Below, piece by piece: positions 3,373 through 23,610 of a stretch of 25,594 bases of DNA. Each line of letters begins with the position of its first letter. Position 1 is the stretch's first letter. The notes under the pieces are model-generated. The model was not told where the DNA came from, searched no databases, and was given only the letters and a program-made list of their open reading frames with translations. The translations under genes and the position numbers were made by a program. The DNA is from Bacillota bacterium (lineage in GTDB: Bacteria; Bacillota; UBA4882; UBA8346), in assembly GCA_041309705.1 (NCBI GenBank), contig JBFYZC010000063.1, positions 1 to 25,594 of the forward strand, read 5' to 3'.

Positions 3373-6267
3373 CTATATTTTAGGCTCAACACCCCATTGG
3401 AGTTGATTGTTGAGATGGGCAGTTACTTTCTCCCATTCGACAAAGGTTTTGGCAGTAGCATTATAGGAATAGTCATTGTTCTGCTGGTAATTCACCCAAT
3501 TGGTTTTACCAAAGCGTGCTTGTAAATCGATACTTTTACCAGGAGCAAGTGTACCTGTACCATTGATAAAACCGATTTCCATGTAATAATCTGCCCCTGC
3601 TTTTGGAGTGGCTAGAGGAACGAATTTAGAGGTTATATATTTTGAATCGATACTACAATAATCGCAATAGAAGACCTGGCTTTCGTTACTATCAATTGTA
3701 TAGTAGTAACGTAAAACGAGTTCGGCAAGGTTGATTGGTTGATTACTCGTATTGATAATTCTAAAGTAAGGATTAATATTTTTGCATGAATCATCAATTA
3801 CATTATTATACATGAGAACTTTAATCTGATCTTTGGCAGGTGGTTGAGGTGGATCATTGGGAACGCGTACCTTAATTTTGATTGGTGCTGAATTGCCTAC
3901 AATTCCTAGCGCATCAGTAGCTTTAACACTCAGGGTAAACTCTTCCAAAGTTCCGGCTGCATTGTTATAGCCAGTAGGATACCATGTAAATGAGTATGGA
4001 CTGGTAAGATCTTCACTGGCTTTAACTTGATTAGCAAAGAGCTCTGCTTTTTGAATTGCGCCATTATTCGAGGTGGCCGTAAGATTAATGGTAATTGGAT
4101 GTGTGGCGTCAACTATTTCAAACTGTTGATTGTTGAGTGGAGCAGTAATCTGAACTTTAGGTGCTTCAAGTACAGTTGGTTCTAGACCGAATACTTTAAC
4201 TCCATTAAAATAGACTGGAATGAATTTGCTAACTTCATTTAATTTACTGATTCCTTGACGACTCCAATCATTGGTAGGATCCCAATGACTCTTAAATTCT
4301 GCATCTTGTTTGGCAACCAGTGCAAATTGAAATTCCCGATCGCCATAGATTGGATAACCTGACCAATCAAAATCAATGTAGTAAGTGCCACAATCATCCC
4401 AAGCTAGTGGCCCGGTACATTTAACTGCCCCGCCATAGCTGGTTTTCTGTTCGTCATACATAATTTGAAATTCAAGATCTTTGATGCTTTGACCGGCATT
4501 GAGCATCTCTTTAATATTAAAGAAGTAACGACAACTCATGCCTGATTCATTACGTGGCGGATGGATAGATTCATTGTGGAGGGTCAGGGTGATCTGAGTA
4601 CGTTCACCACTCTCTTGTTCTAAACGTGCTTCCATATAATATTGATCGATTTTTTGCTCTTTTGGCGGGAAATTTGCGAGTGGTTTTTGACCACGACCAT
4701 AAAGCAGATAGTGACCAGCGAGTGCTCCGACGAAAGAAGCATTATAATCAATGGCGACCTCGTTATAGACATAATCCCAGGTAACATCTTTGTGAACATC
4801 ACTGCCATCAGGACCGCCTACCAAAGCACCCCAAAGTACATGACGATGATTTTCGGGAACCATCATGCTATTGGTTTTTGAACCATGTGCAGCACGATGA
4901 TGTGGATGCATCGCACTTTTTTCACCATAGCCAACTTCGTAGGAGTAGCCCATTGGATTGTCACCTAAGAGATAGTCGATCTGACTTTTTGCCCAATCAG
5001 CAATATCCATCCGTTCGGGATGATATTTTTGATAGACTAAACAACAAAGTTGTGCTGCGGTATTATAACGTGCCGAACCCCAAGTGTTAATCATGGCATA
5101 ACCGGCTTTAGTTGGTTTAATGTAACTGACATCAGCCGGATCATCGTGAGGTACTTTGCCACCACTCCAGTATTCGAGATTCCAGCGTGAGAAATAATCA
5201 AAGTTTTTGTACATTTTATTTTCAGGGAATTGACTGGTAGGGAAGAGTCTTGCTAATTCAGTAAAAACGCCACCCCAGACGGTATCCCAGCAATGTACCC
5301 AGATATTCTGCCAAGTATTTTCAGTAGTGGAGATGATTTTTTTCATATAACCAGTATAGATGCCATTAGCATCAACTGAGTCAATCTGATGAATGTAGTT
5401 CATATTGCCAGTAGCTACATAGAGCCATACTGCTGCCCAAGCAAGGTCATCATCTTCATAACTGGAGCCATAGAAGCCATCGCCATTGCCCAGACCAGGG
5501 TTTTTGCGTGCAAATTCATAAAGTGCTTTGGCGGTGGTCAGACATTTTTGGGCATAAGTTGCATCAATCTCACGATAATTTAGATACATCAGCGCTAAAC
5601 CAGCAGCGGCGGAAGCAGTCTGGTCGGCAGCAGGACTGCCAGTGGTCGCAAAGTCAGCAGGACGAGGACATTTATGAGGATCTTGCAGCTCTGGTGCTCC
5701 CCAATAAGTATGATCAGTACCACCTTCACCTACCATGTAACAGAAAGCTAATAATTCACCTGATGGAGAAAGGAAGCTGCAACGGAGATAACAATCAGAG
5801 AACCATTTTAAGATTTCTAACATGTGCTCTTCTTGACCAGTTTCTTGGAAAGCTTCACGAAAATGATAAAAACCCCAGCCTAAAGTGGAGAAGGAATATG
5901 ATTGCGGCATACCAAACCGTACATGGTCACCAGCATCATGAAAACCACCACTTAGATCCATGAAGCCATCACCATCGGGATCGAAAATTTTGGGGTACTG
6001 AACGAGTAATGTCTGCGGAATGGTGGTGTTAGTCAATGGAACTTTAGTATCTTCAGTATGACAATCGCCACGCCATTCCAGACGACCTCCGGTAATCCCC
6101 GGGCCACATTTTTCGGCGTCGTAAAAGTAAATTGATTTTTGCAGAGCTTCGGCATAGTTGTGTTGGGTGGGGGTCTCTGCCCAGAGAGTAGAACTACTGC
6201 CAACAATAGTCAAAACCAGACTGAGCATTAACAGAATACCTACATACATACGATGTGATTTTTGCAT
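3373..6267 (-). CDS. Secreted multimodular GH9 endoglucanase: signal peptide-GH9-CBM3c-Ig-like-CBM3b
   Basis: DLSGGFHDAGD, HPHHRAAHG and NEVAIDYNA GH9 motifs; CBM3c ending WDPTNDWS..IPVY..G..VFG.EP; Ig-like module PKVQITAP..PYSFTW; C-terminal CBM3 with LRYYYTID and NDYSY; no dockerin. Confidence 0.93.
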   Translation of the reverse strand: MQKSHRMYVGILLMLSLVLTIVGSSSTLWAETPTQHNYAEALQKSIYFYDAEKCGPGITGGRLEWRGDCHTEDTKVPLTNTTIPQTLLVQYPKIFDPDGDGFMDLSGGFHDAGDHVRFGMPQSYSFSTLGWGFYHFREAFQETGQEEHMLEILKWFSDCYLRCSFLSPSGELLAFCYMVGEGGTDHTYWGAPELQDPHKCPRPADFATTGSPAADQTASAAAGLALMYLNYREIDATYAQKCLTTAKALYEFARKNPGLGNGDGFYGSSYEDDDLAWAAVWLYVATGNMNYIHQIDSVDANGIYTGYMKKIISTTENTWQNIWVHCWDTVWGGVFTELARLFPTSQFPENKMYKNFDYFSRWNLEYWSGGKVPHDDPADVSYIKPTKAGYAMINTWGSARYNTAAQLCCLVYQKYHPERMDIADWAKSQIDYLLGDNPMGYSYEVGYGEKSAMHPHHRAAHGSKTNSMMVPENHRHVLWGALVGGPDGSDVHKDVTWDYVYNEVAIDYNASFVGALAGHYLLYGRGQKPLANFPPKEQKIDQYYMEARLEQESGERTQITLTLHNESIHPPRNESGMSCRYFFNIKEMLNAGQSIKDLEFQIMYDEQKTSYGGAVKCTGPLAWDDCGTYYIDFDWSGYPIYGDREFQFALVAKQDAEFKSHWDPTNDWSRQGISKLNEVSKFIPVYFNGVKVFGLEPTVLEAPKVQITAPLNNQQFEIVDATHPITINLTATSNNGAIQKAELFANQVKASEDLTSPYSFTWYPTGYNNAAGTLEEFTLSVKATDALGIVGNSAPIKIKVRVPNDPPQPPAKDQIKVLMYNNVIDDSCKNINPYFRIINTSNQPINLAELVLRYYYTIDSNESQVFYCDYCSIDSKYITSKFVPLATPKAGADYYMEIGFINGTGTLAPGKSIDLQARFGKTNWVNYQQNNDYSYNATAKTFVEWEKVTAHLNNQLQWGVEPKI

Positions 6268-6318
6268 TTAACTACCTCCTTAAGGAAATTGGTTTAATCC
6301 TTAATATTTAAGGATGCT

Positions 6319-8088
6319 TTATGGTAAGTTAATACCATTAGAGCCAAGTGGAATCTGGTGATCCAGACCAATAAACTTTCCTTGAGCATTCTGCCAAAGC
6401 AGCGGACGGACGAGCTCATATTTTTTAAGATCGATTGTCTTCCAATCATCCAGCAGAATTCCTCCTGTATCACCAGAATTTGGATTAATACACCAAAAGA
6501 AGAAATGTAACTGATTTTCCTTGATAAAGCTGGCTAGAGAACGCATCCATTGCTCGTTGTCGGCACCATCAAGTTTTCCGCCCCATTCACCAATTAAAAT
6601 GGGTGCGATGTTTTGTTCGTGGATATAGAACCAATTTGGACGCCAGACATCTCTAGTTAAAGTATCCTTATTAAAACCAGGATAGAACCATGGTTGAGGA
6701 TAAACACTTGCGCCATAATCGTGTGGTGAATAGACTAATTGATTTGGGACATTAAACTGTACTGGATCTTTGGCAACACCACGTAGACAACCGCCCCACC
6801 AATTAGAATAGTAGTGGTTCTTATCAGGATCACTATAAGTATAGCCTTCTTTTGGGTAGATTTCGTTGCCTTCAACGAAGATTAATAAGTGTGGATTGAT
6901 TTTTAAGATTAAGTTACCCACCTTTTCGGCCTCGTATTTCCAGTTATTATCATCAGTGGAATTATCCCATTTTGCACCTAATTCTTGGTAAGTTTTTCCG
7001 TGAGGTTCGTTGAAAAGATCCATTCCAACTAAGGTGTCATCATTTTTATAACGCTCGGTAAGCCACGTCCAACAAGCTTCGAAATCTGCAGTAGTGTATT
7101 GGCTAGCCCACCAGGTAGCAGATTGAGAATGATTGTGAATCCGATGCATATCAAAGACTACCTTAAGCCCGATTTTTTTGCAGTAAGCAATGGAGGTGTC
7201 GAGGATGTATAGAGAATCTTTATCAACTAGTTTTGGATTAGCATAATAGTTGATTGTAGTGGGAAAGACCTTGCGATTTTGACGCCATTCATTAACTAAT
7301 TGAACACAGAGCGGAATGCGCATCACGTTGAAGCCTAGATTGGCAATATTATCTAAGACATCTTCCATTCGAGCTGACCAGAGACCATGATAGCAAGCGT
7401 TAGAAGTCTCAAAACCAAACCAGGCAATCCCAGTAATTTGTACGGGTTGATTCTTCTCATCGAAAATTTGATTGCCATTTACATGAAGATAGTCGTTGTT
7501 GTTAATAGGGACAATTGGAGTTGGTGCTGGTGAAGGACGAGCTCCATTTGGCTCAGTACCCCAAATAAGATCGTTATCTAGATAAGCAGTCACCTTTGAC
7601 CATTCAATATAGTTGGTGGCAGTAGGATTAAAGGAGTAATCATTAGTTTGGTGATATTTAGTCCAATCGTTTTTAGTAATTCTAGTTTGAATTTCAATGC
7701 TTTGACCTGGACTTAAATTACCAGCCATCTCTTTGAAACTAATCTCGATATAATAATCAGTATCTAAAAATGGATTGGTAAGTGGGTTTAGGGTTCCAAT
7801 GACATTGCTGCTGCCGACAGTTGACCAGTCGCAGTTGAAACTTTGGGGCAAAGGTTCGCTATCAATTGTGTAGTAGTAGCGAAGTTTGATTATTTTTAAA
7901 GCTAAACTAGTTTCGCCAGTATTTACGAGCTTGAAACGTGGTGCCAGATTAGTACAGACATCAGCAGTTTCGCTATTATACATTTCGACGCGAAGAGACT
8001 CTCCGGGATTTGCTCCATTGACATCGATCGACACCAATGCACAAAAACACAAAATCAAGCTTAGACAGAAGAAAATTCTTTTTGACAT
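6319..8088 (-). CDS. Secreted endoglucanase: signal peptide-CBM3-Pro linker-GH5 (subfamily 1-like)
   Basis: CBM3 with LRYYYTID and NDYSF; PSPAPTP linker; GH5 acid/base DLFNEPHG and nucleophile IGEWGG, YSPHDYG; SD AAGGAGG. Confidence 0.93.
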   Translation of the reverse strand: MSKRIFFCLSLILCFCALVSIDVNGANPGESLRVEMYNSETADVCTNLAPRFKLVNTGETSLALKIIKLRYYYTIDSEPLPQSFNCDWSTVGSSNVIGTLNPLTNPFLDTDYYIEISFKEMAGNLSPGQSIEIQTRITKNDWTKYHQTNDYSFNPTATNYIEWSKVTAYLDNDLIWGTEPNGARPSPAPTPIVPINNNDYLHVNGNQIFDEKNQPVQITGIAWFGFETSNACYHGLWSARMEDVLDNIANLGFNVMRIPLCVQLVNEWRQNRKVFPTTINYYANPKLVDKDSLYILDTSIAYCKKIGLKVVFDMHRIHNHSQSATWWASQYTTADFEACWTWLTERYKNDDTLVGMDLFNEPHGKTYQELGAKWDNSTDDNNWKYEAEKVGNLILKINPHLLIFVEGNEIYPKEGYTYSDPDKNHYYSNWWGGCLRGVAKDPVQFNVPNQLVYSPHDYGASVYPQPWFYPGFNKDTLTRDVWRPNWFYIHEQNIAPILIGEWGGKLDGADNEQWMRSLASFIKENQLHFFFWCINPNSGDTGGILLDDWKTIDLKKYELVRPLLWQNAQGKFIGLDHQIPLGSNGINLP

Positions 8089-13761: not shown

Positions 13762-13811
13762 GAATTGAAGTAAGCGATGAGATAATGACTGATTAATAGG
13801 GGGTGACTGGA

Positions 13812-14201
13812 ATGAATCTTGATGTTGTAAGTGATCTTTTGGTAGTAACATTACCAATTATTACTGCGGGAGCGACTTATGCTTTAGGTGCTTTTGGTAT
13901 TTACTTAACTAATAAATATCGTAATAATAAATTAATGCAAGCAGTGGCATTATTAGATCAAGTAGTAATTGAAGTGGTGAAAGAGCTTAATCAAACATTA
14001 GTATCAGAATTAAAAAAGGCTAAAGCGGATGGGAAATTGACCCCAGATGAGGTGGCACAGATTCGTAGTAAAGCAGTAGAAATGGTAATTAGTAGATTGG
14101 GAAGTGGAATTGTGGAGATTTTGCTTAAATATTTTGGTAGCTTAACCGAATTAGTAGTTACTAAGATCGAGGCTGCGGTTTATGATTTGAAAACTAAGTA
14201 G
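13812..14201 (+). CDS. Small single-TM protein resembling LL-H-type phage holins
   Basis: One N-terminal TM, then helical domain with ELNQTLV..LK...DGKLT..E motif and IEAAV end; SD AGGGGGTGA favours ATG 13812; family call from recollection. Confidence 0.55.
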   Translation: MNLDVVSDLLVVTLPIITAGATYALGAFGIYLTNKYRNNKLMQAVALLDQVVIEVVKELNQTLVSELKKAKADGKLTPDEVAQIRSKAVEMVISRLGSGIVEILLKYFGSLTELVVTKIEAAVYDLKTK

Positions 14202-16545: not shown

Positions 16546-16570
16546 AAACCCGTCTCAGGACGGGTTTTTT
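16546..16570 (+). terminator. Intrinsic terminator after nfnAB
   Basis: Stem AAACCCGTC/GACGGGTTT, 4-nt loop, T tail. Confidence 0.88.
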
Positions 16571-16935
16571 CTTGCGCTAGGTTCATTTTTGAATCAAATT
16601 AGCGCTTTATTATTTTTTGCTTTTAATATATAATATAGAACATGTTGAAAACATTTTAGCTATATGCTTTCAAAAGGCTTGATTTGTTTGATCTTTACCC
16701 TGATATTTGGTGCATTAAATATTTTTGTTGAATATGACGAAAAAGTAATAACTATGATCTGAAACTTTTTGAAATCAAATTATTCTTATGGTAACTATTA
16801 AGGGGGATTTTTGAAATATATCTGTAAAAAATCTGTTAAATTTATAATTCGTGATACATATGCAGAACGGGTTGCTTTTTGGTGCAACATATATACTTCG
16901 AAATTACAAATTGTTTTACTGAAAGGAATGAAGTG

Positions 16936-17700
16936 ATGCTTTTGAAATACTTGAAAAAATTGTTAATTAGTGGAGTAATTTTAATTGTATGGTTTTTAGC
17001 AAGTCACCATCCCAAAATGAACCCATTATTTTTACCAAAACCAGAAATTGTCTGGTCGGATTTAGTAACTCTCACTCAAAATGGCATGTTACAGCAAGGG
17101 ATGCTTGCTTCTTTTGGTAGAATTACGGTTGCTACGCTGATTACCAGTATGATTACACTTCCTTTGGGTCTTTTGGTGGTTAATCATGCTTGGTTGAATC
17201 GGATGCTCACTCCAGTAACTGCTGCGGCACGCTATATTCCAATTACCATAGCTTCACCACTTTTAATGTTATGGCTGGGAATTGGTGAACCAATGAAGAT
17301 TGCTTTTTTGACCCTAGCAACAATGTTCTTCTTTTTACCAACGGTAGTAATGACAGTGAAGGAGACTAGTCAAGAACTGATAGATACCGCCTACACAATC
17401 GGAATGAGTCCGACACAAGTGATGTTGCAGGTACTGTTACCTAATTCGCTCCCGGTAATCTGTGAAAGCTTTTTAATGATGTATGGGATTGGTTGGAATT
17501 ATGTAATTCTGGTAGAGACCTTTAATGCAACATCCGGCTTGGGTTATATTATTAATCTGGGAAGTATTCGTGGACGCACAGATCTGGTTTTTGCTGCTTT
17601 GGGAGTGATTCTCTTGATTAGTATAATCTTTGATAAAACTGGTAAGTACCTGATTAAAAAGGCGTTTCCTTGGAAGTATGCTCGAGCGGTAGAAGATTAG
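16936..17700 (+). CDS. ABC transporter permease, NitT/TauT (SsuC/TauC-like)
   Basis: FLPKP..VW, RYIPI..ASPLLMLWLGIGE, EAA-like loop ELIDTAYTIG, GLGYII; SD GAAAGGA favours ATG 16936. Confidence 0.9.
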   Translation: MLLKYLKKLLISGVILIVWFLASHHPKMNPLFLPKPEIVWSDLVTLTQNGMLQQGMLASFGRITVATLITSMITLPLGLLVVNHAWLNRMLTPVTAAARYIPITIASPLLMLWLGIGEPMKIAFLTLATMFFFLPTVVMTVKETSQELIDTAYTIGMSPTQVMLQVLLPNSLPVICESFLMMYGIGWNYVILVETFNATSGLGYIINLGSIRGRTDLVFAALGVILLISIIFDKTGKYLIKKAFPWKYARAVED

Positions 17701-17711
17701 GAGGTCAAAGC

Positions 17712-18347
17712 GTGATTGAGTTTCAAAATGTCTCATTGAAGTTTGACGAAAAAGTAATTTTTAATAATTATCAACAAGTCTTTGAAGCAGGCAAGATTTA
17801 TTGTTTGATTGGACCTTCTGGTTGTGGAAAATCCACTTTACTTAGATTAGCCTGTGGTTTGCAACGACCAGATAGCGGGAGAGTGCTTTTTCAGGGAACT
17901 CCAGTTAAGAAAAGTCAAGCGGAGATTTTTATGATGCATCAGAGTCATGTGAATTTTCCGTGGATGACTGTACTAGATAATGTATTATTGCCTTTAAAGA
18001 TTAAAGAAGGCATAATTACTCCCGAAAAAGCGGCACTAGCTCAAGAGATTCTATCTTTGGTAGAGCTCGAAGGGGCAGAGAAACTTTATCCCCATCAACT
18101 ATCTGGTGGAATGAATCAGCGAGTTGCTTTGGCACGAGTCCTGGTCTCACGACCCAAAATTTTGTTAATGGATGAACCTTTAAGTGCACTTGATCCAGAG
18201 TTACGTCTTAAGATGCAGAATCTGATCTTGCAATATCATCAGGCAGTAAATAACCCAATCAGTTTAATTATTATGATTACCCATGATCTAGCAGAGGCAA
18301 GTCGGATGGCAGATCTGCAACTTGATTTCTCACAAATAAGAAAATGA
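17712..18347 (+). CDS. ABC transporter ATP-binding protein (TauB/SsuB-like, compact 211 aa)
   Basis: Walker A GPSGCGKS, signature LSGGMNQR, Walker B LLMDEP, H-loop ITHD; SD AGGAGGT favours GTG 17712. Confidence 0.92.
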   Translation: MIEFQNVSLKFDEKVIFNNYQQVFEAGKIYCLIGPSGCGKSTLLRLACGLQRPDSGRVLFQGTPVKKSQAEIFMMHQSHVNFPWMTVLDNVLLPLKIKEGIITPEKAALAQEILSLVELEGAEKLYPHQLSGGMNQRVALARVLVSRPKILLMDEPLSALDPELRLKMQNLILQYHQAVNNPISLIIMITHDLAEASRMADLQLDFSQIRK

Positions 18348-18358
18348 GGTGATTTACG

Positions 18359-18946
18359 ATGGGTTTTATGGAGATCTTTATTAAAAGCGATGCGCCAGAA
18401 GAAGAGAAAGTTGTGGTAGAATCAAAAACTATAATTACACCAATACATAATGAGCCTCCTTCAGCACCTGAGATGTCAGAGATGAAATTAAATCCAGCAT
18501 CACCAGAAGTAACTAATCTAACCCCAACGATTGTTCTTGATGAAAGTGGAATGATTAAGCAGGTTTATGAAACAGCTGGACTTGGTGATCTAAGTAAATC
18601 AATCTTTAAAATTCAGCAGATTCGAACTTCGTTTCCAGAGACGATTCCGGATGAAGTAGTGCGCCAGACGATTCCCGGATTGCTGACTGCGGCTAATCTA
18701 GATACAGTTGAATTGCGTCTGGATGCCGAAACGAGAATAGCTACATTAAATACTGCCTTGCAAAATAATTTGATGGAGCAAACAGAAAAGATTAATAGTT
18801 TAACTGAAGAAATTAATGAGCTTGCAATGGTAATTGAAGCTAAACGTCAAGAGATTATCAATGCTCAGCAGAACAAGGATATCTTTAGCAAAGTAGTGGA
18901 GCAAGAGACTAAAGTAATTCAAGAAAATTTGACTTATTTATCTTAA
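18359..18946 (+). CDS. Hypothetical cytoplasmic protein with P/E/S/T-rich linker and C-terminal coiled coil
   Basis: SD GAGGTGA, 11 nt after the ATPase stop; no TM; heptad-rich C-terminal ~70 aa. Confidence 0.8.
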   Translation: MGFMEIFIKSDAPEEEKVVVESKTIITPIHNEPPSAPEMSEMKLNPASPEVTNLTPTIVLDESGMIKQVYETAGLGDLSKSIFKIQQIRTSFPETIPDEVVRQTIPGLLTAANLDTVELRLDAETRIATLNTALQNNLMEQTEKINSLTEEINELAMVIEAKRQEIINAQQNKDIFSKVVEQETKVIQENLTYLS

Positions 18947-18981
18947 TATAATACAAATTAAAAAAATAGGGAGGAAAAATA

Positions 18982-19734
18982 ATGTTACTATGGGTTTTAA
19001 TTGGAGTTGCTGTGGTTGCATTTGTTGTACTTTTTACAAAGCCGGGAGTGTTGATTCAGGGAGTTTATCATACCTTTTTTAAAGATATGATGGCAACTCC
19101 CGAAGGAGCAGAGAAAGTTTTTGCAGTGAAGATTGAGCAGATGCAAAAACGTCGCGTCCAAGCAGTAGAAGCATTACAGGAAGTCTCAGGACAACTCAAT
19201 CGAATGCAGGCTAATTATAAGAAAATCTCAAGAGAGCTAGAGGAGATTGAAAAGAGCTGTGAAACATTGGCACAGAAGGGTGAGTTTAATGGCGATTTAG
19301 AGGTTCTTGCCCAACAACGCGAGGGAATTTTGCAGCAAAAACAGATGTATCAGTCTCAGATCGCCGAGTTGGAACCAATGTGTCGTGAAACACAAGAAGT
19401 TTTGACTACATTAGAGTTACAATTAACTGCTTTGGAACGTGAAAAAGTAACAGTAGTGAATAATCTACGTCTAAATATTCAAAAGAAAGAGATGTATGAT
19501 ACTCTGGATAATCTACGCAAGACTACCGTGGACAAGTTGCTTGCCGATGCTCGTGATGGAGTACAACGTAAAGAAGATCTGGCGGCTGGGGCTAAGATTG
19601 TACATGACTCTCGTCTGGAGACCAAAGTTGAGAAAGCAAAACAATCAGCAACAGGTATGGCAAGCAGTAGTTATCTGGATCAGTTGAAGAATAAGTATAA
19701 TAGTCAAGAGAATAACTCGAGCATTTCAAAATAA
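18982..19734 (+). CDS. PspA/IM30-like coiled-coil protein with N-terminal TM anchor
   Basis: Hydrophobic residues 1-18, ATPEGA motif, long Q/E/K helical hairpin, C-terminal SSYLDQLKNKY reminiscent of the PspA tail; SD GGGAGG. Confidence 0.65.
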   Translation: MLLWVLIGVAVVAFVVLFTKPGVLIQGVYHTFFKDMMATPEGAEKVFAVKIEQMQKRRVQAVEALQEVSGQLNRMQANYKKISRELEEIEKSCETLAQKGEFNGDLEVLAQQREGILQQKQMYQSQIAELEPMCRETQEVLTTLELQLTALEREKVTVVNNLRLNIQKKEMYDTLDNLRKTTVDKLLADARDGVQRKEDLAAGAKIVHDSRLETKVEKAKQSATGMASSSYLDQLKNKYNSQENNSSISK

Positions 19735-19750
19735 TTAGAGGTGAAAATTT

Positions 19751-21265
19751 ATGTTTAGTCGGTTAACAACAGTAGGAAAAATATCAATTTTTGTGATTTT
19801 AATTTTAATCTTGGGAGCAGTAGGTTATTTTACCGGGCAGTTTGATAGTTTTTTGGGTAAAGGTAAGTTGCAAGTGAATCAACCAGGTGGGTTGCCAGCT
19901 AATAGTGAAGTAATGCAGATCTCCTTAGATGAATGGATTGGTTGGAAACCGATTCTGGATGCCAATGGTGGTCTGGAGACAAAGAAAGGTAGTATCTATG
20001 ATTCATTAGGTCTGAAATTAAATATTAAGGTAATTAATGATGCGGCTATAAGTTCAACCGCTTTGATCAATGGCTCGATTGTGGGAGCTGGCTATACAGT
20101 TAATCGTTATGCTTTTTTAAATGATAAGTTTAAAAATAATAATACTCCAGTACAGATGGTCTATTTAGTGAATGCCTCAGCTGGTGGCGATGGAATTATT
20201 GCTAGAGATGGGATTAACTCAATTGAAGGTTTGAAGGGTAAGAAAATTGCTTTGCCACAAGCAAGTGAAGCTCAAGTAATGATGGAGTGGCTCTTGGGTG
20301 CTAGTTCATTGACGGCCGAAGAGATTAACGGAATTCGTCGTAAATTTGTCTTCTTTAATACACCAGATGATGCTGCAAAAGCGTTTTTTGCCGGACAAGT
20401 TGATGCCGCAGCTACCTGGCAGCCTTATCTTTCGCAAGCACAACAACAGGGTGGATGTCATATCTTGTTCTCCACTAAGAATGCAACTAACTTAATCTTG
20501 GATGGAGTATTATTCCGTGAGGATTACCTCCAAAAATATGGTGCAAAAGTGCGATTATTTATTGAAGGTGCCTTAAAGGCAGCCTCGCTTTATGAGACTG
20601 AGTTTACTTCAATTAAGAATACCTTCCCGCTTTTTGCGAGTGAAACTGATGCGAATATCAAAGCGATGACTGGGGATGCAATCTTACTGGATCATGCTAA
20701 TAACTTAAGTCGTGAAAGTGTGGCAGTAAAGCTTTATGAGGATATGGCAAAGATCTGGAAGTCATTAGGGACAAATGCGGATTCAAGTGATGCAGGAAAA
20801 GCGTTTGATTTTAGCCTCTTAAAAGCACTTGCCGACAAGTTCCCGGCTGCAGTTACCAAAGTACCAGCCTTTACTGAGCAAGAACGCCTCTCGGCACAGG
20901 TGAAAAAAGAAGCTCTAATTACTAATCGCTTAACGATTAATTTCACCACCGGAACGGCAACCTTAACTGAGAATGATAAAAAAGCGTTGGATGAATTTGT
21001 TGGTAAAGTTGAGTTGCTTGACCGAGTGGTGATTCAGATTGAAGGAAACACTGATAATGTTGGAAATGCACAATCGAATGAAGAATTATCATATAAACGT
21101 GCACTTGCGGTAAAGAATTATCTGCAGTGGCAGCACGGGATTGATCCGAGTCGGTTTATCATTATTGGAAATGGGCAGAATAAGCCAGTGGCGGATAATA
21201 ATACCGATTCTGGTCGGAGTGCCAATCGCCGTACTGATGTCTATTTGAAAACAGTGGGTAAGTAA
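19751..21265 (+). CDS. Membrane-anchored NMT1/TauA-type substrate-binding protein fused to a C-terminal OmpA-like peptidoglycan-binding domain
   Basis: N-terminal TM, no lipobox Cys; SAGGDGIIA..GINSIEGLKGKKIA, DAAATWQPY; OmpA-C motif IEGNTDNVG....NEELSYKRALAV..YL...NRRTDV. Confidence 0.88.
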   Translation: MFSRLTTVGKISIFVILILILGAVGYFTGQFDSFLGKGKLQVNQPGGLPANSEVMQISLDEWIGWKPILDANGGLETKKGSIYDSLGLKLNIKVINDAAISSTALINGSIVGAGYTVNRYAFLNDKFKNNNTPVQMVYLVNASAGGDGIIARDGINSIEGLKGKKIALPQASEAQVMMEWLLGASSLTAEEINGIRRKFVFFNTPDDAAKAFFAGQVDAAATWQPYLSQAQQQGGCHILFSTKNATNLILDGVLFREDYLQKYGAKVRLFIEGALKAASLYETEFTSIKNTFPLFASETDANIKAMTGDAILLDHANNLSRESVAVKLYEDMAKIWKSLGTNADSSDAGKAFDFSLLKALADKFPAAVTKVPAFTEQERLSAQVKKEALITNRLTINFTTGTATLTENDKKALDEFVGKVELLDRVVIQIEGNTDNVGNAQSNEELSYKRALAVKNYLQWQHGIDPSRFIIIGNGQNKPVADNNTDSGRSANRRTDVYLKTVGK

Positions 21266-21275
21266 GTTGAAAAGT

Positions 21276-21310
21276 AACCAAAAACGCCTTGCAAAAGGCG
21301 TTTTTGGTTT
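21276..21310. terminator. Strong intrinsic terminator closing the five-gene operon
   Basis: Perfect 15-bp stem AACCAAAAACGCCTT/AAGGCGTTTTTGGTT with GCAA tetraloop. Confidence 0.9.
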
Positions 21311-21331
21311 AAAATTAGGGAGATGATAAAA

Positions 21332-21805
21332 ATGAAGATTGACAAGCCTTCGCCATATTTAATCTGGGGATCGTTGCTCCCTACAAATGTTATTTTTCTT
21401 TATCTCGGTCTTATCAAGATACCAAGTAATCAGTATTCAAAAGAGATCACTCCATTATTAATTGGATTTTTTGTTGTAGGGCTAATCAGTGCAGCGGTTA
21501 GTCTGTTTTTCTTTCGTTATCTTCATTTTAGTAAAAAGTTTTATAGCTCAAAGGTTGTAGAATTCTTGGATGAGCAGAAGAAGTTACCTAATACCAAAGA
21601 AGAATACCAGAATGTTTATGCTAAACTTTATGGAGTAGTGATGGGTTTAGCTGGAAATGCAGCAGGATTTGGGGCGATTGGTTTCTTTGTATCAAAGAAT
21701 TTCGAGTTTTTCATCTCTATGCTGAGTATCTCATTACTAGCTGAGTTACTGATCTTCCCTAGACCAAAGAAATTTGCTGAAAATATCTTGGGAGAGATTG
21801 AGTAG
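21332..21805 (+). CDS. Hypothetical membrane protein (about 4 TMs)
   Basis: Four hydrophobic segments; SD AGGGAG favours ATG 21332. Confidence 0.7.
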   Translation: MKIDKPSPYLIWGSLLPTNVIFLYLGLIKIPSNQYSKEITPLLIGFFVVGLISAAVSLFFFRYLHFSKKFYSSKVVEFLDEQKKLPNTKEEYQNVYAKLYGVVMGLAGNAAGFGAIGFFVSKNFEFFISMLSISLLAELLIFPRPKKFAENILGEIE

Positions 21806-21882
21806 TGAGTGAAGCAAGGTCATTTCACGCTTAGTTGGTAATTTGTTAATTGTTTAATCTTGGTTTTTATGGAGGAATCCTT

Positions 21883-22887
21883 GTGAAAAAATGGATATCG
21901 ATGAAATTTGTTTTGATAATTTTAATGTTTGGTTTAATAATTTGTATAATTGGATTAGCTTTTTGTTGTATTGAGAGTGATAAATATATAAGCAAGAATG
22001 TTAGTGAAAAGAATGCTAGAGTTGATGAACTAGCTACCAATAGCAAATTTTTGAAATTTAAGAATGATGCAGTAGCATTGGTTGAGGTTGAAGCACTGGA
22101 TAAAGAGACCAAAATTAAAATTAACAATGTTAAGTATTATGAAAAATTTTTAAACTATAAAAATAAATTTGATAATTTTATTATAAAGGAAAACCAGTCA
22201 ATCGAGACATTTGTGGGTCAAGAAGGGCAAAATTCTTTGATTACGGCAGAGATATTTAAGATTAATAGTGCTCGAAAAGTAAGTACAATTAGGATCAATG
22301 CCGATGCGCTTGATATTTTTGCAAGCTATTATAAGACTTCAAAATATGGTTGTTGTGGGGCAGAAAATTATCATGAATTAGTATCGTTATGGGGAAATAA
22401 GACTTTTTTGAAATATAACTCTAAATATTATTGCATTGATATACCAAATACAGGAATTAAATTATATTTTGGATTTTTGGTAGATTCATGGGATAAAAAG
22501 AATTTGATTCTTGGGGAGTTGTATTTTGCGCATTCGATATCGAAATCAGTGCCAGGAAAGGCATTTGTGACTCATGGGTTTACAACAGTTAATAAAGTGA
22601 TCTTTAAAACTAAAGATAAAGCTTTGTTTAATGAAATTCTGGGTTTTTCTCCACAAATAACTTTGTTAAAAAGTATTAAGCAGGATCGATTGATTGAATA
22701 CCAGGATCATCAGACTTTGACCCTTTGGTCATTTGACAAAAATGATAGATTGGAGGGAATTAGTTTTGTAGCATTAAAGCTGGAATTTGAAGGCGATAAA
22801 ACTATTTCGGTAGAGATTCCGATTAAAAATGGCTATTTGTTCGGCAAAGCAAATAAATTTGATCAAGTGGTATATCTTGGAGAATGA
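21883..22887 (+). CDS. Hypothetical exported/anchored protein, AT-rich
   Basis: SD GGAGGA before GTG 21883; N-terminal hydrophobic segment; YGCCGAE motif; no family recognised. Confidence 0.7.
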   Translation: MKKWISMKFVLIILMFGLIICIIGLAFCCIESDKYISKNVSEKNARVDELATNSKFLKFKNDAVALVEVEALDKETKIKINNVKYYEKFLNYKNKFDNFIIKENQSIETFVGQEGQNSLITAEIFKINSARKVSTIRINADALDIFASYYKTSKYGCCGAENYHELVSLWGNKTFLKYNSKYYCIDIPNTGIKLYFGFLVDSWDKKNLILGELYFAHSISKSVPGKAFVTHGFTTVNKVIFKTKDKALFNEILGFSPQITLLKSIKQDRLIEYQDHQTLTLWSFDKNDRLEGISFVALKLEFEGDKTISVEIPIKNGYLFGKANKFDQVVYLGE

Positions 22888-22955: not shown

Positions 22956-23244
22956 ACACTTTTGTTTGGAAAATTCCGAGGTAAATGATTTTTAAAATAA
23001 AAATAGTGGAAGTTATTTTTTAACATTGCTCTAAATCGTTTGTACCGATACGTTAGTCGGGAAGTCAAGCCTGCGGAGAGTTATACAAACAGGAGTAGCT
23101 TTAGCCAAACCGGATTCGATGAAACAGGAAGAGAACAAAAAGTTTAATAGACTTTTATAAGTTTTTTGTAACGGAGAGTCTGAGGAAGTATTTGTAGTCA
23201 GTGATTTTAACTGAAAAATTTAATCTAAAAAAGGGGACTTGGAA

Positions 23245-23610
23245 ATGGCAAAAGCAGAAATAACATATGACACATATATGAGTAATCTGGATGAAGCGAA
23301 TCGGGTTGTTTTGGGTGAATTATTTACACGTGCCAAAGCAATTTTGCCTAATCATTCAGTGAATATGAAGTATGGTTTCCCATTGCTGGATGGGTTTGGG
23401 AAATTTGGTTTTGCGCAGAAAGCAAGTGGGATTACTTTATATTTTCATCATCATCAATTAGCCGAGGTTGTGGCGAAATATCATACTAAACTTGGTCAGT
23501 ATAAATTAGATAAAGAGAGTATTAAATATAAAAAGGCAGCGGAGATTCCGCTAGAGCAGATTTTGGAGATAATCAAAGAATTATTTACTGAGACGGAATC
23601 ATTTCATTAA
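23245..23610 (+). CDS. DUF1801 (YdhG-like) protein
   Basis: Y...L....R..L.EL, MKYGFP, ITLY, IPLEQILEII pattern; SD AAGGGGA favours ATG 23245. Confidence 0.65.
   Translation: MAKAEITYDTYMSNLDEANRVVLGELFTRAKAILPNHSVNMKYGFPLLDGFGKFGFAQKASGITLYFHHHQLAEVVAKYHTKLGQYKLDKESIKYKKAAEIPLEQILEIIKELFTETESFH

Follow-up and report, generated by a model that had tools for sequence, protein, structure and literature searches.

A five-gene cassette of Clostridia and large phages that joins a NitT/TauT-type ABC core to a membrane-anchored PspA-like protein and a putative wall-binding protein

The window analysed here, a contig of 25,594 nucleotides from a Bacillota bacterium (JBFYZC010000063.1, assembly GCA_041309705.1), carries on its forward strand a five-gene operon encoding an ATP-binding cassette (ABC) permease, an ABC ATPase, a coiled-coil protein (g3), a transmembrane (TM)-anchored protein of the PspA/Vipp1 fold (g4) and a TM-anchored fusion of a substrate-binding domain to an OmpA-like domain (g5). 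We read this locus as one self-contained, horizontally mobile envelope module, in which, with a probability of about 0.4, membrane maintenance of the PspA type would be coupled to a wall-tethered, ligand-gated ABC module; the sensor-to-repair mechanism of a first-pass annotation can reasonably be proposed for it. Because the gene order is fixed, no flanking genes are conserved and look-ups made with g3 lead back to the cassette, g3 and g4 are taken as integral parts of it and the cassette itself as autonomous. The genes and the signals around them are as follows, SD denoting a Shine–Dalgarno sequence and E an expectation value.

16546..16567 (+): terminator of the upstream gltD-like gene; 9-bp GC-rich stem, then a T-run
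16568..16935 (+): non-coding leader/promoter region of ~370 nt, between the upstream terminator and the permease gene
16936..17700 (+): ABC permease, 254 aa; PF00528, E 2.9e-19; SD GAAAGGAA 7 nt before the ATG
17712..18347 (+): ABC ATPase, 211 aa; PF00005, E 5e-32; GTG start; GGAGG overlaps the permease stop
18359..18946 (+): g3, coiled-coil protein, 195 aa; SD GAGGTGA; 11-nt gap
18982..19734 (+): g4, TM-anchored protein of the PspA/Vipp1 fold, 250 aa; SD AGGGAGG; 35-nt gap
19751..21265 (+): g5, fusion of TM segment, SsuA/TauA-like binding domain and OmpA-like domain, 504 aa; SD AGAGGTGA; 16-nt gap
21276..21309 (+): intrinsic terminator closing the operon; perfect 15-bp stem, GCAA loop

All five open reading frames (ORFs) were confirmed on the forward strand, at 16936-21265, where a first-pass annotation of the same sequence had placed them, and the layout that it had described was confirmed with them: an SD site ahead of each of the five genes, gaps of 11-35 nt (11, 11, 35 and 16 nt in turn) and a closing terminator of 15 bp. 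The start of the ATPase was placed at the GTG at 17712, following the call in the closest relative. The closing hairpin has a folding energy (dG) of -22.3 kcal/mol (z = -5.1), with 0/200 shuffled sequences folding equally well; a simple terminator scan did not list it because its U-run lies partly within the stem, and its symmetry means that it is possibly bidirectional. The terminator at 16546-16567 (dG -13.9 kcal/mol, z -4.0) marks the 5′ boundary of the transcription unit. Within the operon there is no excess of promoter-like matches (32, against 23.9 ± 5.2 in shuffled sequence) or of terminator-like matches (6, against 4.2 ± 2.5). The leader was searched for a riboswitch or other leader RNA that might serve as a clue to the ligand, and no Rfam family reached threshold in 16568-16935. 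A conserved promoter or operator was also sought, by aligning the upstream regions of three relatives; the first ~110 nt, proximal to the terminator, are conserved with the closest relative (locus L001), the remainder is not, and the comparison was uninformative.

The cassette was followed through 111 related loci collected starting from g5, or 118 with later look-ups, which were drawn from close relatives, from species-representative genomes (19 loci), from 80 of at least 125 IMG/VR contigs, from GenBank phage records and from three long metagenomic contigs. ORF calling was naive, gene order was read with family hidden Markov models built for the purpose and the IMG/VR labels were accepted as given. 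The order permease-ATPase-g3-g4-g5 was exact in 86 of the 111 loci, and was found with a duplicated g5 in four more; with g5 clustered at 80% identity, all five genes were present in 33 of 44 lineages, one of the 33 being circularly permuted. The gap from g3 to g4 had a median of -0.5 nt, so that the two genes abut or overlap, which suggests translational coupling. There is no conserved flanking gene, no flanking family occurring in more than 6 of the 44 lineages. When g3 was used for the look-up, three of five homologues proved to be part of the cassette; the remaining two came from contigs just 1.2 and 1.5 kb long, of which one shows g3 alone and the other no more than a permease gene directly before g3. 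The proposal of the first-pass annotation that the two extra genes form one unit with the ABC genes is thus borne out, and the co-occurrence of all five, for which it had suggested a neighbourhood survey, holds.

Some of the related loci depart from this arrangement or have particular neighbours. An AAA+ ATPase was considered as a hidden sixth component of the cassette and rejected, such a gene being adjacent in just 3 of 120 loci; none is present in the window, as judged by a Pfam scan and a survey of the window genes. In two related chromosomal loci, L117 (9151-10272, reverse strand) and L118 (11562-12689, reverse strand), a convergent AAA+ gene (AAA + AAA_lid_6, ~375 aa) abuts the binding-protein/OmpA gene, and in L031 (7231-8211, forward strand) a different AAA+ gene lies near the cassette. 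These neighbours echo the AAA+ partner in an operon noted by Ravi et al. (2024), but they are rare. A sister cassette, which we call type B, has the order g5-permease-ATPase-X-g5 in five loci from rumen and gut Clostridia (L010, L012, L014, L016 and L021), where X, a protein of 225-260 aa with two TM helices, a helical domain and no family match, stands in place of g3 and g4; in the type B copies of g5, the OmpA Asp is replaced by Ala (GNTA). Neither hhalign (probability 13% over 42 columns) nor a profile search of the PDB supported the idea that X is a diverged PspA, which was rejected. In L009 (WQYV01000072), labelled as a betaproteobacterial metagenome-assembled genome, the full cassette adjoins a 1228-aa gene of the DUF748/AsmA family, which we link to diderm bacteria (those that have two membranes), as well as a PtsI gene. 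Either mis-binning of the contig or a cassette that also functions in diderm cells could account for this.

We find that g4 is a PspA/Vipp1 protein of the ESCRT-III superfamily with its own membrane anchor, a variant of the usual architecture. On its own, the window protein falls below threshold against PF04012 (PspA_IM30; E 0.0015, 18.7 bits against 33.9), although the match is colinear over residues 33-237. The PspA-like identity that the first-pass annotation had assigned to it nevertheless rests securely on its family and predicted fold: 11 of the 15 members of the family alignment match PF04012 (best E 5.3e-10), a distant homologue in L114 has a precomputed match to the same family, and the g4 family profile is colinear with Vipp1/PspA chains (35-204 against 14-182, E 0.0016). 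The AF2 model of g4, which like that of g3 was built on an alignment of 2-3 sequences, has a mean predicted local distance difference test (pLDDT) score of 80, and >90 over the hairpin; its helices comprise a TM helix (2-18), a short helix (22-36), a long hairpin (40-98/104-227) and a terminal helix (230-244). The top Foldseek matches of the model were Vipp1 (7o3w, 9eom) and PspA (4whe, 7abk), with probability 1.0, TM-scores of 0.5-0.69 (up to 0.60/0.69) and E-values (3e-3) that are modest, as is usual for all-helical proteins. The model thus contains the alpha1-alpha2/3 hairpin and further helices of the ESCRT-III fold, and has the TM helix 2-18 in the place of the N-terminal amphipathic helix alpha0, for which the short helix 22-36 may be the counterpart. 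The N-terminal segment is strongly hydrophobic, and, among 71 unique homologues, the Lys/Arg count is 0.39 before the TM segment and 2.77 after it. Because these residues are scarce before the TM segment and frequent after it, the PspA-like domain should face the cytoplasm (a predicted C-in topology).

In contrast to g4, g3 matched nothing beyond coiled-coil noise in Pfam (searched with all 14 family members), NCBIfam, PHROGs, a profile search of the PDB or, with a model of low confidence, Foldseek. A profile search of 1.84 billion representatives nevertheless returned 200 clusters at 50% identity (E<=1e-3), nearly all of 170-200 aa and aligning over the same 130 residues, and on these alignments we regard g3 as a genuine, widespread new family that has no Pfam model. 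The protein begins with a short, conserved hydrophobic peptide, followed by acidic residues and a disordered, variable linker, and then by the helical part, which consists of a small conserved domain (~65-115) and a long C-terminal coiled coil (117-194). A conserved block, IYxxxxLxDxSxSIFKVxxxIxSLP..., is recognisable, and E14, Y70, I82, P93, I152 and E183 are invariant; the long homologues of the family merely carry extended acidic linkers. That g3 is a diverged copy of g4 was considered and rejected, hhalign against the g4/PspA profile giving a probability of 0.5%. In one metagenomic protein, P0188 (229 aa), the first two-thirds of g3 are followed by the last ~80 residues of g4; this is either a natural deletion-fusion or an assembly artefact.

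The g5 protein consists, in order, of an N-terminal signal-anchor, an SsuA/TauA-like substrate-binding domain and a C-terminal OmpA-like peptidoglycan-binding domain; no lipobox Cys is present in its N-terminal sequence. The OmpA-like domain is recognised with confidence (PF00691, E 3e-21, 75.9 bits against a cut-off of 27.2), and its nearest counterpart in the PDB is PA0833-PD (4.6e-24), with YiaD, ArfA, YfiB and MotS/MotB also matched. In structures of OmpA and Pal, a conserved Asp and a conserved Arg contact the diaminopimelate stem peptide, and in g5 both are there, as Asp435, in the motif GNTD, and R450; the motifs LSYKRA and NRRT are also present. In an alignment of 87 homologues, there is no variation at the Arg or in NRRT, but the Asp position varies (D32, N32, A21). 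The binding domain exceeds the cut-offs of PF09084 (NMT1; E 6e-7, 30.1 bits against 20.5) and PF13379 (25.6 against 24.7), and scores 80 bits (E 1e-22) with TIGR01728 (SsuA_fam), for which the subfamily cut-off is 163.5. The nearest structure to its core is that of TauA (6ssy, 6.5e-8), followed by SsuA (2x26), the match spanning the central part of the domain only. It is also the most conserved part, with ~50% identity between the window Clostridium and phage G and many invariant residues. These scores point to no particular ligand.

The remaining two genes encode what the sequence motifs indicate is the core of a canonical binding-protein-dependent ABC importer, namely a TauC/SsuC-like permease and a catalytically intact ATPase. 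The permease (PF00528, 69.9 bits against a cut-off of 26.4) has the type-I importer fold, resembling TauC, SsuC and SaoP, and carries a coupling motif of the EAA type, ELIDTAYTIG, at residue 147. The ATPase has all the expected motifs (Walker A GPSGCGKS, signature LSGGM, Walker B ILLMDEP and H-loop ITHD), of which the K, SGG, D-E and H are invariant among 81 unique homologues, and it comprises the nucleotide-binding domain only, lacking a C-terminal regulatory domain. At the level of Pfam and subfamily models, the permease, the ATPase and the binding domain all fall in the NitT/TauT family. However, no cut-off was reached for an assignment to a known substrate among the NCBIfam equivalogs for TauABC, SsuABC, NrtABC, ThiXYZ and SaoABP: the permease matches SaoP, TauC and SsuC with E 1e-30 to 1e-25, but its best equivalog score was 106 bits against cut-offs of 295-347, and that of the ATPase was 160 against 360.

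The cassette is also carried by large phages. Bacillus phage G (JN638751) has the full set, as gp243 (permease), gp245 (ATPase), gp246 (g3), gp247 (g4) and two copies of g5 (gp249 and gp250), with g5 49% and g4 38% identical to the window proteins. The cassette also occurs on a G-like contig of 558 kb, with genes for RNA ligase, DNA ligase and gyrase; on a 197-kb contig, among many small same-strand ORFs and with Thg1, a RecD2-like helicase and NrdD; on a contig of 261 kb that has a terminase gene 3 kb upstream of the cassette; and, in IMG/VR, on no fewer than 125 contigs. Neighbours of phage type, judged as phage-like from a few neighbouring genes, were also found at loci filed as bacterial, in Dysosmobacter, Hominicoprocola, Acetatifactor and Lacrimispora assemblies and in Blautia and Faecalimonas metagenome-assembled genomes, and include primase-helicase, Pol III alpha, NAMPT, NAD synthetase, DNA methyltransferases, RNA ligase/RNA repair proteins and an HNH endonuclease. 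Plainly chromosomal copies are those of the window and of seven other loci (L017, L019, L024, L007, L009, L117 and L118). In a neighbour-joining tree of g5, a rough one that has no bootstrap support, the chromosomal and phage copies interleave, and the window clade adjoins the 197-kb phage-like contig and the phage G group, which suggests repeated exchange of the cassette between chromosomes and phages. There was no match in PLSDB that would indicate carriage on plasmids. In PHROGs, phage families without an assigned function already cover the permease, g4 and g5 (phrog_6743, phrog_33389 and phrog_25518, g4 matching phrog_33389).

At five of the gut large-phage loci (L011, L013, L015, L022 and L036), the cassette lies a few kb from genes for NAMPT, a phosphoribosyltransferase-domain protein and NAD synthetase, a proximity to NAD salvage that is confined to 3 of the 44 lineages and may be coincidence. 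A remote form of the cassette, with g5 27-29% identical, was found in a 735-kb uncultured phage (L026, LR756501; 6937-12695) and in Prevotella phage Lak-A2 (L027; 6367-12733), in the order coiled-coil protein, 353-aa unknown, binding-protein/OmpA fusion, permease, ATPase; the ORF calls in Lak phages are unreliable, as these phages use an alternative genetic code. The 353-354-aa proteins beside the remote cassettes of both phages gave no family match, and the ATPase of the 735-kb phage has an extra N-terminal extension of ~125 aa.

In the mechanism that we propose, the binding protein would be pinned, outside the cell, between the membrane and the peptidoglycan, and g3 and g4 would lie on the cytoplasmic face of the membrane. 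There, g4 would form ESCRT-III-like assemblies on the inner membrane face, sealing or stabilising the membrane, and the ABC module would place or gate this activity. Docking of the ligand-loaded binding protein on the permease would lead to ATP-dependent movements of the ATPase subunits, and these might be relayed to g4 by g3, through its N-terminal peptide and its helical domain, such that local membrane maintenance would respond to a solute or signal from the space of the wall, or to wall–membrane strain. In large phages, the cassette might serve to maintain a sealed, energised host membrane for the duration of a long infection; in bacteria, it would be kept as an envelope-stress module. Precedents for such a role are the tie between remodelling and transport that Ravi et al. 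suggested for a related operon and the transcribed pspA-like gene of jumbo gut phages, both described below. No host-specific regulator appears to be needed, because the whole cassette is present in phage G, on the 558-kb and 261-kb contigs and in the IMG/VR contigs.

Several observations weigh against this coupling. The contacts of g3 and g4 with the ABC subunits are ones that we infer, and the polymerisation of g4 is deduced from its predicted fold only; the AF2 model of g3 is of low confidence (pLDDT 65), being high only in the C-terminal helix. No fusion of g3 or of g4 to the ATPase was found among the homologues, the lone fusion, P0188, joining g3 to the tail of g4 only. The type B cassettes imply that different partners can serve the ABC/binding-protein core; the Asp of the OmpA domain, which in the model proteins touches diaminopimelate, varies within the family, as described above; and the closest solved binding proteins match at only E ~1e-7, over part of the domain. 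To our knowledge, all known BPD_transp_1 systems are importers, and plain uptake by this one is possible. No computed result, be it a riboswitch, a defence-system match or an informative fusion, separates the coupled envelope module from the alternatives considered here.

That the locus is mainly a nutrient importer, an auxiliary metabolic set when carried by phages, is an alternative that we consider somewhat unlikely; it would take up a solute of the sulfonate, taurine, nitrate or hydroxymethylpyrimidine (HMP) class, with g3 and g4 as protective or regulatory accessories. The hallmarks of a type-I importer are all present and conserved (EAA motif, ATPase motifs and SsuA/TauA-like binding protein), and the conservation of the binding domain above all other parts fits a fixed ligand. 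An importer, however, needs neither a PspA-like nor a coiled-coil protein, yet both are kept, with overlapping genes, in 33 of the 44 lineages, and neither an upstream riboswitch nor a recognisable nutrient regulator was found. PHROGs classes phage ABC ATPases under ‘moron, auxiliary metabolic gene and host takeover’, and the type B cassettes retain the ABC core without g3 and g4, both in line with uptake as the main function; on the other side, no conserved genes of sulfonate, nitrate or thiamine pathways lie nearby, and the proteins score far under every equivalog cut-off for a known substrate. In another alternative, the ABC ATPase would be the motor that assembles or dismantles the g4 polymer, in the role of Vps4 or PspF, with the binding protein only a wall anchor or trigger and no transport taking place. 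In favour of this, 117 of the 120 loci have no AAA+ gene, whereas the Handelsmanbacteria operon of Ravi et al. has a double AAA+; against it, one is adjacent in the other three loci. The ATPase consists of nothing but a nucleotide-binding domain, its catalytic residues are strictly conserved, and the layout of g3 (short terminal peptide, small domain and coiled coil) is that of an adaptor; against this, a type-I importer acting on a cytoplasmic polymer is without precedent, the permease keeps its importer-type coupling motif, the binding domain is strongly conserved, as if it bound a ligand, and the argument is inferential throughout. We regard a pure motor as improbable.

We also think it quite unlikely that the cassette is an envelope barrier of phage against phage or of host against phage, as in superinfection exclusion, which would block or reseal the breach made by DNA delivery or counter premature damage by holin and lysis functions. 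An association with defence islands had been raised by the first-pass annotation and found no support: the phage flanks hold replication, RNA-repair and NAD-salvage genes and the chromosomal flanks housekeeping genes, with no flanking family recurring beyond the small number of lineages given above, and PADLOC-DB v2 gave no system match. The hits there were generic, linking the ABC ATPase with mad3/AriA and the OmpA domain with the region of ZorB that resembles MotB, and there were none for g3 or the permease. The resemblance of the OmpA/MotB-like wall anchor to ZorB, of the Zorya defence system, counts for a barrier at the domain level only. The frequency of the cassette on large phages, in variable genomic contexts, and the repeated exchange suggested by the interleaved copies in the g5 tree would suit a barrier too, and the Psp response was itself discovered through phage secretin stress, PspA limiting the leakage of protons. 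However, there is no match to a nuclease, protease or toxin family in the five proteins, g3 matching no family at all, and in close relatives the window copy keeps its synteny and has been passed on vertically. The link to phages differs in kind from the response to phages that the first-pass annotation had imagined, in that large phages carry the cassette themselves.

A bolder proposition, which we hold to be unlikely, is that the cassette represents a new class of ESCRT-III-type machine, in which a wall-tethered ABC transporter, and not an AAA+ protein like Vps4 or PspF, senses the envelope and, with g3 as adaptor, drives a TM-anchored PspA polymer to assemble or turn over. Such a machine, traded between giant phages and Clostridia, would let phages control the host membrane, by sealing it, by excluding rivals or by shaping internal membranes. 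The cassette would link a protein of the PspA fold with both the cell wall and a membrane complex powered by ATP, and offers a compact, portable system for the question of how these are coupled. Bacillus phage G, which grows on B. megaterium, is a culturable system in which to ask why giant phages bring membrane-maintenance genes with them. If plain nutrient uptake should prove to be the function, the cassette would explain the ‘ABC transporter’ gene set that recurs in large phage genomes.

The surroundings of the operon in the window are chromosomal, and comprise GH9 and GH5 cellulases with CBM3, an ammonium transporter with PII, YpeB, a radical-SAM/DUF4130 pair and the gltD-like pair. The cellulases are secreted and encoded in tandem (3373-8088, reverse strand), one combining GH9, an Ig-like domain and two CBM3 (963 aa) and the other CBM3 and GH5 (588 aa). 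In the close relatives, whose g4 proteins are 86% and 72% identical to that of the window, germination genes of the GerA type lie beside the cassette; from these genes and the cellulases of the window, the host is taken to belong to the Clostridia, to degrade cellulose and to form spores. Genes for capsid, tail or terminase were not seen in the window, where the only phage-family match is a holin-like membrane protein of 132 aa (13803-14201, forward strand; phrog_36209, E 1.6e-9; phrog_13712, E 6.8e-9), ~2.7 kb upstream of the operon, which is kept at the same place in the close relative L001 and has no other phage gene nearby. Right after the operon terminator, two ORFans with no family match (21323-22887, forward strand), of 160 aa (multi-TM) and 345 aa, lie in a stretch of ~30% GC content, against ~39%; the closest relative lacks both genes and has a GerA germination operon in their place, so that they are probably a recent insertion. 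Further on, a RAGATH-18 RNA motif (23070-23130, forward strand; 60.8 bits against an Rfam gathering threshold of 44.9, E 5.5e-10) lies ~110 nt upstream of a 123-aa ORF (23239-23610) that has no PHROGs family match.

The permease, the ATPase and the binding domain belong to the same family as those of NitT/TauT importers (TauABC, SsuABC and ThiXYZ/NMT1-type), from which the cassette differs in its TM-anchored, OmpA-fused binding protein, in an ATPase without a regulatory domain and in having two non-transport genes within the operon. With the classical Psp and Lia systems (E. coli pspF-pspABCDE and B. subtilis liaIH-liaGFSR), it shares an effector of the PspA/IM30 fold at the cytoplasmic membrane face. 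The PspA homologue of the Lia system is held at the membrane by LiaI, a small membrane protein, much as the TM helix of g4 would hold g4 itself; g4 differs in having its own TM anchor rather than the amphipathic helix alpha0 alone, and its partners in the cassette are an ABC importer and a wall-binding protein. No PspF, PspB/C, LiaI, LiaF or two-component regulator was found among the genes of the operon or the window, the sole PspB-like signal being a sub-threshold match in YpeB, ~9 kb away. A 2025 review of bacterial ESCRT-III proteins (PMC7619361) treats the placement and regulation of PspA/Vipp1 polymers without a Vps4-like ATPase as an open question, and makes no mention of ABC or OmpA partners.

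Phages have been connected with PspA before. Jumbo gut (Jug) phages are reported to encode and transcribe a pspA-like gene (PMC12880540), which lies beside terD genes, in phages of Bacteroides hosts and outside any ABC/OmpA cassette. Bacillus phage G has, in its gp243-gp250 region, the same five genes in the same order; it adds two small ORFs (gp244 and gp248) and a second binding-protein/OmpA paralogue (gp250), and its genes are annotated only as ‘ABC-like’, ‘OmpA/MotB domain’ or hypothetical.

A published counterpart is in Ravi et al. 2024 (mSystems; PMC11237479), who devote one sentence and one table row to operons of PspA/Snf7, AAA+, ABC and PBPB-OmpA proteins and suggest that membrane remodelling is linked with solute transport. 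Their example, from Candidatus Handelsmanbacteria (OGG56892.1), has the order PspA, binding-protein/OmpA fusion, permease, ATPase, TM-Snf7 and double AAA+. No functional study of the cassette was found in the literature, in agreement with the first-pass annotation; its description of the system as undescribed is accurate in that respect, but does not allow for this operon or for the listing of g4, g5 and the permease in PHROGs. Both operons bring together an ABC ATPase, a permease, a binding-protein/OmpA fusion and a membrane-anchored protein of the ESCRT-III superfamily. However, that of Ravi et al. has a separate soluble PspA and a pair of inactive and active AAA+ domains, neither of which is present in the window cassette, and its TM protein is given as a divergent Snf7, whereas the family of the window protein scores as PspA_IM30. 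The obligate g3, the fixed order of five genes and the carriage by phages set the present cassette apart, phage carriage and fixed order being unreported for theirs; the sharing of the cassette with giant phages and the new g3 family are the findings added here.

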